From an uncultured Pseudomonadota bacterium (lineage in GTDB: Bacteria; Pseudomonadota; Alphaproteobacteria; Rs-D84): a stretch of 64,000 bases of DNA. Position 1 is the first letter of the stretch. Every line of letters starts with the position of its first letter. The translations under genes and the position numbers were made by a program. Location: the NCBI GenBank assembly GCA_902774285.1, contig CACYHO010000001.1, positions 400,958 through 464,957 on the forward strand, given 5' to 3'. This document shows positions 33,358 through 35,831 of this stretch, piece by piece. The notes below the pieces were generated by a model, which ran no database searches, was not told the DNA's origin, and saw only the letters and a program-made list of their open reading frames with translations.

Positions 33358-33948
33358 TTAATTATTCCGTAAATATTTATATAAAGTACTTTTGTTAACA
33401 TGCATAATGCGTGCGATTTCATTTTTGCTGATACCTTTGTCAACAAGGCGGTTTATGCGTTTTTTATTTTTGCTTAATTTTAAAGTTTTTGATTTTGCAC
33501 CGATTGGACGCCCCAGTTTTTTCCCAGATGCTTTTAATCGTGCTAAACTTTCTCGAACACGTTCTTGTAATAAAGATTTTGATAATTCTGCAGACAAACC
33601 AAAGGCAAAAGCCAATACTTTTGATTGTATATCAGACCCCAGTCGAAAGTTTTCTTTCAATGTCCAAACTTGACAGTCTTTTTCAAGGCACGTTTGCAAA
33701 ATTCCCATGACTTCCAATAAACTGCGTCCCAATCTGGAAATTTCAGTTGTTATTAAAATATCACCAGATTTCAGTTTGTTTAATAAAAGACCAAGTTTTC
33801 GGTCTTGTAATTTTTTACTGCTGGAAATTTTTTCTTCGACCCAAGCATCAATTTGTAAATTATTTTGTTTTGCGAAATTTTCAATGACAAAGTGTTGATT
33901 TTCTTCGTGTTGATGTGCAGTAGAAACACGACAATATCCATAAATCAT
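33358..33948 (-). CDS. Serine recombinase, Hin/Pin-like DNA invertase
   Basis: YGYCRVST (catalytic Ser), EISRLGRS, GKKLGRP, C-terminal HTH. Confidence 0.92.
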   Translation of the reverse strand: MIYGYCRVSTAHQHEENQHFVIENFAKQNNLQIDAWVEEKISSSKKLQDRKLGLLLNKLKSGDILITTEISRLGRSLLEVMGILQTCLEKDCQVWTLKENFRLGSDIQSKVLAFAFGLSAELSKSLLQERVRESLARLKASGKKLGRPIGAKSKTLKLSKNKKRINRLVDKGISKNEIARIMHVNKSTLYKYLRNN

Positions 33949-34045
33949 AAAATCTCCTTTTTCTTTTTTTTACAATAAAAAAACAGGCACAATGCCTGTC
34001 GATTATGTCAATGATATAATTTGTTTTTTTCATATTTCAAGTGGT

Positions 34046-34071
34046 TCAATTTAAACCAAGGTTTTTTAACC
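34046..34071 (+). promoter_or_regulatory. hix-like recombination site (left)
   Basis: TCAATTTAAACC-AA-GGTTTTTTAACC versus hixL TTCTTGAAAACC-AA-GGTTTTTGATAA. Confidence 0.75.
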
Positions 34072-34155
34072 GCCCTCCAAAACACACAGTTACAAAACGT
34101 TAAAATCATTGCTTTTCAGCCAAAAATTATATTTTTTATTCTTTACAAAAAATGG

Positions 34156-34184
34156 TTGACTTTTAACCTTGGTTTTTGTACCAT
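34156..34184 (+). promoter_or_regulatory. Adhesin promoter straddling the right crossover site
   Basis: TTGACT-N17-TACCAT; the crossover dinucleotide 34169-34170 lies in the spacer. Confidence 0.7.
34157..34182 (-). promoter_or_regulatory. hix-like recombination site (right, inverted)
   Basis: Minus strand GGTACAAAAACC-AA-GGTTAAAAGTCA. Confidence 0.75.
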
Positions 34185-34250
34185 CTGATTACGTAATCCC
34201 AAAGATTACAGTTTTTAATATTAAAAATAACTAAAAAAAGGGAAAACAAA

Positions 34251-35831
34251 ATGAAAAAACATTTGATTTTGACTTCTTTGGCTGCAATTGTAGCAACTAC
34301 TGGTGCTGCTAGTGCGGTTACAATTGAAGAAGTTGTGGCTAATGCAAAAATGGATGCAGCAGTAATGCCAGAAACATCTGCTGAACCACAATATAGTTCT
34401 TATAGCTATGATTCTAATGGAGATGGTACAGCTGACGCTTACTTGACAAATGGAAGCGGAACAGATGTAATCGATACAAATTTAGAAGCTTTTACTTATC
34501 AAAACCGTAAAGGCAACTGGGCAGATTTGACCTTGGATACAGCAACAGGAACAGCCCAGGCCGATCAAGCAATAGACGCTGCTGATTATTACTATTACAG
34601 TGCTGTCGCTGATACAACATATCATGGTGACGATGAACACATTAATAAATCTTTGTATAAATACAATGTAACAGATAACAACGGTACAGTATCTGAAACA
34701 AATTTGGCTGATACAACAGCAATATCCAAAGGTTCTTATACATATGGCGTTAGTGCAGAATTTACACAAAGAACAACACCACAAACTATTGAACATGAAC
34801 CAGTATTTTCTGACTATGTAGGATTGGATGCTACATTGGCAGGTAAAACATTGGCTGATTATATGTTGGCAGATGGTTCTGGTATTGACAGCACAAAAAT
34901 TGCTGGTTTAGATTCTGCTGCTCAAACAAGTATACAAAATGCCTTTGCTGCATACACAACTGATCACAATGCATATGAAACAGCAAAAGGTTATTATGAT
35001 GCTTCTGTTGTTGAATTTAATACAATTTCAGGTAAAGCAGATGCTGATGAAGCTGTTGTTGCAGGTATGAACAGTGTATTTGTAGCAGATAGTGCAGATT
35101 ATACAGCAAAATCAGGTGCTTTGACTGCTGCACAAACATCTTTATCAGAAGCACAAGGTGCTTATACAACAGCTACAGCAAATTATAATACTGCTGTTGC
35201 TAATGCTAATGATTATAATGCTTCTTTGAGTAAAGTTATCAAAGATGCTGATCAAGTCACATTAGGTTCTGCAAAACAATATACTGACGGTGCTGTGGCT
35301 GGTAAAGCAGATGCAGAAGCTGTTGACACAGCTTTGTCTTTGAAAGCAAACACAGCAGATGTTAATAGTGCTTTGGATGGTAAAGCAGATAAAGCAACAA
35401 CTTTGGCTGGTTATGGTATCACAGATGCTTATACAATTGGCGAAGTTGATAATTTGGTCAATGGCGCAAAAGATTATACAGATGGTATTGCAAATGGTTT
35501 GCGTAATGAATTTGCTGCGGCTGACGCTTTGACATTGCGCAGTGCAAATTCTTACACAGATGCAAAAGTTAACTCTTTGGAAAAGAATATGTCTGGTGGT
35601 GTAGCAGCCGCTACTGCATTGTCCGCAGTTTCTGTGGGTAATGTTGATCGTGGTGAAGTTTCTGTTGGTGGTGGTTATGGCTATTACAACGGACAATCTG
35701 CGATGGCATTTGGTGCAGCAATGGGATTGTCAGACAGATGGTCTGTTAATGCCGGTGCAGGTATCGCAAGCGGAGATTCTACTCAATTCTCTATCCGCGC
35801 TGGAACAAATTATAAATTTAAATTGTTCTAA
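34251..35831 (+). CDS. Trimeric autotransporter adhesin (YadA-like anchor)
   Basis: Signal peptide, Ala-rich coiled stalk, ANSYTD neck, GVAAATAL...GGGYGYYNGQSAMAFG...NYKFKLF. Confidence 0.9.
   Translation: MKKHLILTSLAAIVATTGAASAVTIEEVVANAKMDAAVMPETSAEPQYSSYSYDSNGDGTADAYLTNGSGTDVIDTNLEAFTYQNRKGNWADLTLDTATGTAQADQAIDAADYYYYSAVADTTYHGDDEHINKSLYKYNVTDNNGTVSETNLADTTAISKGSYTYGVSAEFTQRTTPQTIEHEPVFSDYVGLDATLAGKTLADYMLADGSGIDSTKIAGLDSAAQTSIQNAFAAYTTDHNAYETAKGYYDASVVEFNTISGKADADEAVVAGMNSVFVADSADYTAKSGALTAAQTSLSEAQGAYTTATANYNTAVANANDYNASLSKVIKDADQVTLGSAKQYTDGAVAGKADAEAVDTALSLKANTADVNSALDGKADKATTLAGYGITDAYTIGEVDNLVNGAKDYTDGIANGLRNEFAAADALTLRSANSYTDAKVNSLEKNMSGGVAAATALSAVSVGNVDRGEVSVGGGYGYYNGQSAMAFGAAMGLSDRWSVNAGAGIASGDSTQFSIRAGTNYKFKLF

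Follow-up and report, generated by a model that had tools for sequence, protein, structure and literature searches.

A short invertible segment that probably switches a surface adhesin by moving half of a promoter in an alphaproteobacterium of the order Rs-D84

The DNA analyzed here is a stretch of 64,000 nucleotides (hereafter the window; positions 400,958 to 464,957 of contig CACYHO010000001.1, GenBank assembly GCA_902774285.1) from an uncultured gut or rumen alphaproteobacterium of the order Rs-D84, Candidatus Enterousia, in which a pair of inverted recombination sites is flanked by a serine recombinase gene on one side and by a YadA-anchor adhesin gene on the other (Table 1). We consider it very likely that these elements form an inverton for phase variation of the surface adhesin, with the adjacent Mpi-family invertase as catalyst and with a promoter that is split by a recombination site to give ON and OFF states. 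As judged from assembled sequences, inversion of the segment in nature is real, and we infer that the adjacent invertase catalyzes this inversion and that the orientation of the segment sets transcription of the adhesin gene. Because the segment is present in both orientations in wild populations, it most likely turns the surface adhesin on and off.

The two recombination sites represent one hix-like site in inverted orientation. The core of the left site, AAACCAAGGTTTTTT at 34053–34067, reads AAACC-AA-GGTTTTTT with the AA centered at 34058–59, and the core of the right site, AACCTTGGTTTTT at 34165–34177, reads AACC-TT-GGTTTTT, which on the minus strand is AAAAACC-AA-GGTT. The sites lie 111 bp apart from center to center, and a repeat search of the window returned inverted arms of 11 nt that are 100% complementary. 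Each site is an imperfect palindrome built around a 2-bp crossover core, the two are inverted with respect to one another, and natural breakpoints coincide with the cores; the AAACC-AA-GGTTT core resembles hix of Salmonella. An initial annotation of this DNA had proposed hix-like sites, a 111-bp distance between them and a promoter at the right-hand site, and all of these features were found where it had placed them. How exceptional is such an arrangement? The sequence AACC-AA/TT-GGTT has only 7 copies in the 855-kb genome. With one mismatch permitted, the pair described here is the sole pair in the genome with a separation of 95–135 bp, and it is located 106 bp from the only resolvase-family gene; at the same tolerance, no further switch was found in this genome, which is 77% complete. 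A scan of 257 genomes of the genus found site pairs of this kind in 30, and a reversed-pattern control in 0. The pairing of these sites is far beyond chance.

Evidence for natural inversion comes from the comparison of related assemblies. In the relative G210 the flanks are 99.4–99.8% identical to those of the window, whereas the segment between the crossover dinucleotides has an identity of 52–60% in the direct reading, which rises to 97% once it is flipped in silico. Ten independent assemblies from different samples encode an identical invertase protein within a common gene order of ZapA gene, invertase, switch and YadA-anchor gene, and between the same flanks eight of them carry the segment flipped (OFF) and two carry it as in the window (ON). 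Orthologous invertase-adjacent loci in other species are ON in 4 cases and OFF in 15, where these and all other such tallies count population consensuses and do not equal switching rates. In the natural alleles the breakpoints fall at the predicted crossover dinucleotides, as they should for a serine recombinase, which cuts at 2-bp cores. Invertons are defined as promoter-bearing segments that are bounded by inverted repeats and occur in nature in both orientations, and this is what the locus presents.

A fundamental question is how would the orientation of so short a segment control the adjacent gene? The promoter scan reports TTGACT-N17-TACCAT (9 of 12 matches), with a −35 box that ends 7 nt before the crossover and a −10 box located 8 nt past it. 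Since the crossover point is placed between the two boxes, inversion relocates the −35 box alone, and the recombinase half-sites overlap both promoter elements. The initial annotation had placed the −35 box inside and the −10 box outside of the segment and had predicted that inversion would substitute CGGTTA for the −35 box; an in-silico flip confirmed that CGGTTA then occupies the −35 position. Naturally flipped relatives read ...GGGCGGTTAAAA-AACCTTGGTTTTTGTACCAT at this junction. In the mechanism that we propose, dimers of the Mpi-family small serine recombinase would bind both hix-like sites (34058–59 and 34169–70), the sites would be synapsed and cut at the central AA/TT, and rotation of the strands would invert the 109–110 bp between them. 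The segment would thereby carry only the upstream half (A-tract and TTGACT) of a sigma-70-type promoter. In the ON state the two halves would stand 17 nt apart, as they do in the assembly, and in the OFF state CGGTTA would be found at −35 and TTGACT would face the opposite flank, a decoy that has no −10 box.

Table 1 Features of the switch locus (positions in the window).
Feature	Position	Strand	Details
Mpi-family small serine DNA invertase, 196 aa	33358–33948	−	Pfam Resolvase and HTH_7; NCBIfam NF009949
Terminator-like GC hairpin and U-run, invertase 5′ leader	33972–34000	−	stem ACAGGCAC/GUGCCUGU; terminator scan; RNA fold −10.7 kcal/mol
Putative promoter of the invertase gene, TTGAAA-N18-TATCAT	34011–34040	−	promoter scan 10/12; −35 box abuts outer edge of left site
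Left recombination site	34041–34076		outer decoy half-site GTGGTTCAATTTAAACC; crossover AA 34058–59; inner half-site GGTTTTTTAACCGCCCT
Invertible segment	34060–34168		109–110 bp between crossover dinucleotides; ON orientation in assembly
Central motif	34103–34118		AATCATTGCTTTTCAG; family consensus TTGnTTTTA(C); alignment of 13 divergent switch families
UP-like A-tract (34147–34152) and −35 box TTGACT (34156–34161)	34147–34161	+	inside the segment
Right recombination site	34152–34186		inner half-site ATGGTTGACTTTTAACC; crossover TT 34169–70; outer half-site GGTTTTTGTACCATCT
−10 box TACCAT	34179–34184	+	fixed outside the segment; promoter scan
Adhesin 5′ leader	34193–34228	+	hairpin GTAATC/GATTAC 34193–34209; AT palindrome GTTTTTAATATTAAAAAT 34211–34228; from sequence
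Trimeric-autotransporter-type adhesin, 526 aa	34251–35831	+	signal peptide MKKHLILTSLAAIVATTGAASA; Ala/Thr-rich passenger; YadA anchor residues 467–523

The same split layout recurs in a family of switches across the genus. A total of 71 non-redundant site pairs was collected, of which one (L030) was dropped as a chance match to leave 70 switches. The arrangement TTGnnn-N16–18-TAnnnT is possible in exactly one orientation in 65 of the 70, in both orientations in 0 and in neither in 5, where a rough chance estimate of ~0.1 per flank predicts exactly one orientation in ~18%. As assembled, 11 of the 65 are ON and 54 are OFF. The proposal that a serine invertase moves only the −35 box, and that the window was assembled in the ON state, thus gains support from comparison, both through the occurrence of the two orientations and through the split layout of 65 of 70 switches. 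In all of them the −35 box ends 6–7 nt from the crossover and is preceded by an A-tract, for which the consensus across families is aAAAAAatgGTTGAC. The −10 flank always faces a gene, the start of which is usually 38–83 nt and at most 213 nt away, and the protein encoded there begins with a signal peptide: a YadA-anchor protein at invertase-adjacent copies, and elsewhere exported proteins without a Pfam match, including one with a Listeria-Bacteroides repeat. The opposite flank keeps the recombinase half-site (GTGGTYnAA...AACC) and never has a −10 box. Center-to-center spacing is 106–111 bp in 61 of the 70 switches and 117–121 bp in the other 9, and no switch within the searched range has a spacing of 95–105, 112–116 or 122–125 bp. 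These two bands, which are about one helical turn apart and derive from copies that are not independent, fit a helical-phase requirement. A leftward promoter that would be directed toward the invertase in the OFF state was also considered, and it was rejected because the hexamer that TTGACT would find 17 nt away is TTGAAC, which does not qualify as a −10 box, and because TAnnnT is correctly spaced on 0 of the 65 decoy flanks.

Switches were counted in each genome and invertases were counted by homologue search. A single invertase orthologue accompanies 24 switches in G212, 14 in G209, 11 in G007, 8 in each of G148 and G191, and 7 in G213. In G065 there are 25 switches and the best invertase homologue is only 60% identical; G205 has 14 switches and 2 close homologues (76% and 75% identical), and G106 has 12 switches with 1 orthologue (84% identical) and 2 paralogues (56%). 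The window’s genome has one invertase and one switch, side by side. Paralogous loci of one genome can be in both states, as in G148, where the eight switches examined comprise 3 ON and 5 OFF, and we infer that one invertase catalyzes inversion in trans at dispersed switches. In switch-rich genomes, several copies sit no more than ~200 bp from the end of a contig (G065:C7:122, G065:C11:19, G106:C3:171, G106:C10:104, G172:C3:45 and G018:C14:141), which suggests that repeated and possibly heterogeneous switches break the short-read assemblies of this group.

What kind of enzyme is encoded beside the segment? Pfam assigns residues 2–144 to Resolvase (E 2.6e-29) and residues 159–194 to HTH_7. The catalytic serine lies in MIYGYCRVST (RVST being residues 7–10), followed by a GRP minor-groove arm and a C-terminal helix-turn-helix (HTH), such that the protein has the N-terminal catalytic domain, the serine near residue 10 and the C-terminal HTH of the small serine recombinases. 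Alignment with NF009949, the model for the master DNA invertase Mpi family, covers profile positions 1–195 of 203 and scores 265.1 bits (E 3.9e-79), which is 7 below the equivalog cut-off of 272; the next family reaches 36 bits and all other NCBIfam models are below 40. Against Gin (4m6f) the score is 46 bits (E 4.5e-11), and against the Tn3 and gamma-delta resolvases it is 35–37 bits. The protein is the only resolvase-family homologue in the genome, and its closest homologues outside of its clade belong to Bacteroidota, with 52–56% identity. No inverted repeats were found adjoining these Bacteroidota homologues, which is consistent with action in trans. In a quick maximum-likelihood tree, the bulk of the Rs-D84 enzymes, 27 of the 39 Pseudomonadota rows, fall in one expanded 30-row cluster inside the Mpi-like family (Shimodaira–Hasegawa approximate likelihood-ratio support 87), and Gin is on a very long branch outside of that family. 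From these comparisons we place the invertase within the wider Mpi-like clade, as one of its divergent members.

Several points weigh against the split-promoter inverton. TACCAT agrees with the −10 consensus at only 4 of 6 positions, and 10 promoter-like sites were found by the promoter scan where 8.5 are expected in shuffled sequence; with the scan at the shuffled background, the promoter call rests on conservation and not on the scan. The NF009949 score falls short of its equivalog threshold, as given above, and the evidence for inversion is drawn from assembled consensus sequences. One alternative, which we regard as unlikely, is that the inversion is real and its output is something other than loss of the −35 box. 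A complete promoter might then be situated at another place, or expression might be set by the direction in which a hairpin, terminator or protein-binding site of the segment points, and TTGACT and TACCAT would be by-products of the constraints on the half-sites. The hexamers do overlap the half-sites, with the −35 box contained in TGGTTGAC and the −10 box read as ATGGTA on the opposite strand, so conservation of the hexamers could partly reflect recombinase binding, and the promoter scan by itself is not above background. However, the decoy flank keeps the GGT half-site motif and has TAnnnT at the right spacing in 0 of 65 cases, whereas the gene-facing flank always has TAnnnT. Moreover, a UP-like (upstream-element-like) A-tract lies directly 5′ of the −35 box in most families, and the spacer is constant at 16–18 nt despite half-site sequences that differ between species. 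It is still less probable that the two orientations arose through past rearrangements that have since become fixed, or through general recombination between the short inverted arms, with no active reversible switch. The comparison covered assembled consensus sequences only, which leaves room for such an explanation, but the two states occur among near-identical alleles (invertase 100% and flanks >99% identical) and recur across many species and many paralogous loci. RecA-type recombination needs arms longer than 11 bp, which also counts against this explanation, as do the invertase open reading frame, intact in every orthologue, and the multi-copy genomes, in which switches are often found at contig ends as repeated or heterogeneous DNA would be.

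The initial annotation had described the invertase as Hin-like, and a strict Hin-type mechanism would call for an invertasome and a Fis-bound enhancer, which could lie at the start of the invertase coding sequence as it does in gin and cin. The site core AAACC-AA-GGTTT is the same as that of hix, and the invertase gene adjoins the segment as it does for Gin, Cin and Pin. Yet the enzyme is no nearer to Gin than to the resolvases, and switches of sister species that are far from any invertase gene occur in both states. Moreover, a Fis-type HTH_8 domain above the Pfam cut-off was found in 0 of 26 genomes of the order (the window’s genome and 25 relatives, with 24 of the 26 at least 90% complete). 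Hin-type invertases are defined by their dependence on a remote recombinational enhancer bound by Fis (PMC4513852). Given the sequence distance to Gin and the absence of Fis from the 26 genomes, we rejected the strict Hin-type reading, to which we attach hardly any credence, and the Hin-like label is replaced here by assignment to the Mpi family.

If Fis does not assist the inverton, how would a loop of ~110 bp be closed? The occurrence of both states at switches distant from an invertase gene places any accessory element within the ~110-bp switch or its immediate flanks. Alignment of 13 switch families (<75% mutual identity) revealed a shared motif, which is located at relative position 0.45–0.50 in 7 of the 13, including the window (segment midpoint 34114), and which is a candidate site for an architectural protein. 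Genes for HU, an IHF-alpha-like and an IHF-beta-like protein are present in the genome, and in some paralogous families the other strand of the motif is a perfect IHF consensus (AATCAACGACTTA, AATCAACCACTTA). Against this idea, the motif of the window has at least 2 mismatches to the IHF consensus WATCAANNNNTTR and enrichment over shuffles is modest. A search for helically phased A-tracts gave no specific 10–11 bp peak and no 10.5-bp periodicity, with power broadly raised relative to shuffles, and such tracts were dropped as a bending device for want of the specific peak. In our proposal, a host bending protein (HU or IHF-like) at the central motif would close the loop in place of a Fis-bound enhancer, although we hold a protein-induced bend at the segment center with low confidence. 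A broader and decidedly tentative hypothesis is that the ~110-bp module is a self-contained, Fis-independent serine-invertase substrate with four half-sites, two spacing classes and a midpoint element where IHF or HU could make a U-turn, thereby closing a loop shorter than the DNA persistence length, and that one trans-acting Mpi-like enzyme sets up to ~25 half-promoters in a 0.9-Mb genome. If true, this system would be one of the densest known for combinatorial variation of the cell surface, and its substrates would be among the smallest that any natural serine invertase uses.

The half-sites themselves fall into two classes. Class A half-sites have TGGT at 13–16 nt from the crossover and comprise the outer decoy flank and the inner −35 end, and class B half-sites have (C/T)GGT at 10–13 nt from the crossover and are found at the inner end without the promoter element and in the outer flank with the −10 box, where the element is the ATGGTA already noted as the complement of TACCAT. 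It follows from this assignment that both sites are A-core-B in the ON state, and that a flip to OFF leaves one A-core-A and one B-core-B site, an arrangement that might bias the two switching rates. Since the recombinase-binding sequences overlap both promoter hexamers, bound invertase should compete with RNA polymerase. The core dinucleotide is the asymmetric AA/TT in the window and in some species, and palindromic TA in others; TA is found in both sites in G020, G007, G065, G209 and G018 (for example L005, L007, L021, L044 and L043). Because a TA core is palindromic, the core alone cannot distinguish inversion from deletion, and directionality would have to come from synapse geometry or from the asymmetric half-sites.

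The leader of the invertase gene has its own organization, in which the putative promoter is followed by ~10 nt, a GC hairpin, a U-run and a ribosome-binding site (RBS). TTGACA or TTGAAA is kept at the matching place in the invertase promoters of orthologues, and in single-sequence folds the orthologous leaders keep a hairpin and T-run with different stem sequences. RNAalifold returned no consensus structure for the invertase leaders because the hairpins differ in length. As the promoter abuts the outer half-site of the left site, autorepression is plausible. The terminator-like leader, possibly together with autorepression, would keep invertase levels low; the leader may be an attenuator, and low expression of the invertase would suit a low-frequency switch.

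The adhesin gene downstream is predicted to encode a trimeric autotransporter, as initially annotated: a signal-peptide-like N-terminus read from the translation precedes the passenger, and the C-terminal YadA_anchor domain is matched with E 2.3e-9. Adhesin orthologues beside orthologous invertases also have YadA_anchor. The fold of the adhesin leader is weak (z = −1.45). The perfect AT palindrome GTTTTTAATATTAAAAAT just 5′ of the RBS is kept in orthologous adhesin leaders, with TTTAACGTTAAA in its place in a second group of orthologues, and the small hairpin that precedes it varies; the palindrome could be an operator or an RNA element. At two loci, L023 (G069) and L034 (G009), the invertase is 99.5–100% identical to that of the window and the adhesin genes are only ~63–69% identical in DNA. 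The combination of near-identical invertases with divergent adhesins implies that the passenger is hypervariable or exchanged between strains, and such divergence would be typical of a surface protein that is exposed to pressure from phage or immunity.

Within the Rs-D84 clade there are also two invertases from contigs that were binned to unrelated phyla, namely L059 (JAZTXF010000097.1, under the title Gastranaerophilaceae) and L076 (CAVCSV010000013.1, under the title Limosilactobacillus gorillae), the former with a switch of the AACC-AA-GGTT type. Mis-binning of these contigs is more probable here than horizontal transfer. Paralogous Mpi-like invertases of other Rs-D84 metagenome-assembled genomes (MAGs; L064, L071, L075, L084 and L113) adjoin inverted-repeat pairs of their own, with arms of 14–21 nt that are 104–170 bp apart and with cores such as AAACCACCGTTT and ATAAACCACCATTTAT. 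The presence of different cores beside these paralogues indicates that the module of invertase and mini-switch has diversified in site specificity.

Candidatus Enterousia, of the order Rs-D84, comprises uncultured gut and rumen Alphaproteobacteria with genomes of <1 Mb and a presumed dependent lifestyle (PMC12306168). In full-text literature searches, no account of invertases or of phase variation came up for Enterousia or Rs-D84. What is already known is the control of surface structures by an invertible promoter that is driven by an Mpi-family serine invertase. The locus differs from this known kind in its lineage, in having a crossover within the spacer of the promoter, in a segment that is very short and restricted in length, in the pairing of a hix-like core with an enzyme that is not of the Hin type, and in how densely copies occur in sister genomes. 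In the reading preferred here, a type of promoter inversion that is associated with Bacteroides (Mpi-family) would be used to switch a trimeric autotransporter adhesin, and in sister species the same system would act on dozens of exported proteins, which points to strong pressure from phage, immunity or partner attachment. A crossover in the spacer, a segment of ~110 bp and no Fis amount to a minimal design that could show how serine-invertase synapsis proceeds on very short loops and could serve as a very compact recombinase-addressable promoter part. Such switches would also explain contig breaks and orientation differences among MAGs of the group.

The closest known system is Mpi, the “master” serine DNA invertase of Bacteroides fragilis, with its invertible polysaccharide and surface promoters (Coyne et al. 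2003, as cited in PMC4747536; PMC10403206). The locus described here resembles that system in its protein family, given the essentially full-length match to NF009949, in the flipping of short promoter-bearing segments to switch surface structures, in the pairing of one invertase with many dispersed promoters in sister species, and in having no Fis. It differs in that the host is an alphaproteobacterium with a genome of <1 Mb, the window’s genome has a single switch that adjoins the invertase gene, the crossover site is set within the spacer of the promoter and only the −35 part is mobile, the segments measure 106–121 bp from center to center, and the promoter is of the sigma-70 type and not the −7/−33 type of Bacteroides. 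With Hin/hix and with Gin, Cin and Pin (of phages Mu and P1 and element e14, respectively), the locus shares a small serine recombinase with a C-terminal HTH and inverted, imperfectly palindromic sites with a 2-bp core, and the site core across the switches, AACC-WW-GGTT, is hix-like. In Gin, Cin and Pin the invertase gene lies beside the segment, as it does here; an invertase outside of its segment, which the initial annotation had pointed out, is normal for these systems and for Mpi. The segments of the Hin, Gin, Cin and Pin systems are ~1–4 kb in length, whereas the segment here is ~110 bp and gene-free. The description of the segment as unusually short therefore holds for a serine invertase, but not for invertons in general, since >75% of the 10,983 PhaseFinder invertons in the DeepInverton core set are <300 bases (PMC11602134). 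Further differences from these systems are a sequence relationship that is only distant (46 bits to Gin), the absence of Fis from the lineage (26 genomes), and a promoter that is split by the site instead of being wholly within the segment. A parallel in a very small genome is that of Mycoplasma penetrans, in which, as reportedly described by Horino et al., the mpl lipoprotein genes each have a short invertible promoter (~135 bp) that gives combinatorial surface variation; those switches are said to be attributed to tyrosine recombinases and to have a different site type, with the promoter wholly inside the element. Finally, the joining of a mobile −35 box to a resident −10 box is familiar from the hybrid promoters of insertion sequences (IS), where the −35 box lies in the IS end and the −10 box in flanking DNA or in the opposite end, although those promoters arise by transposition or circle-junction formation and not by reversible site-specific inversion.

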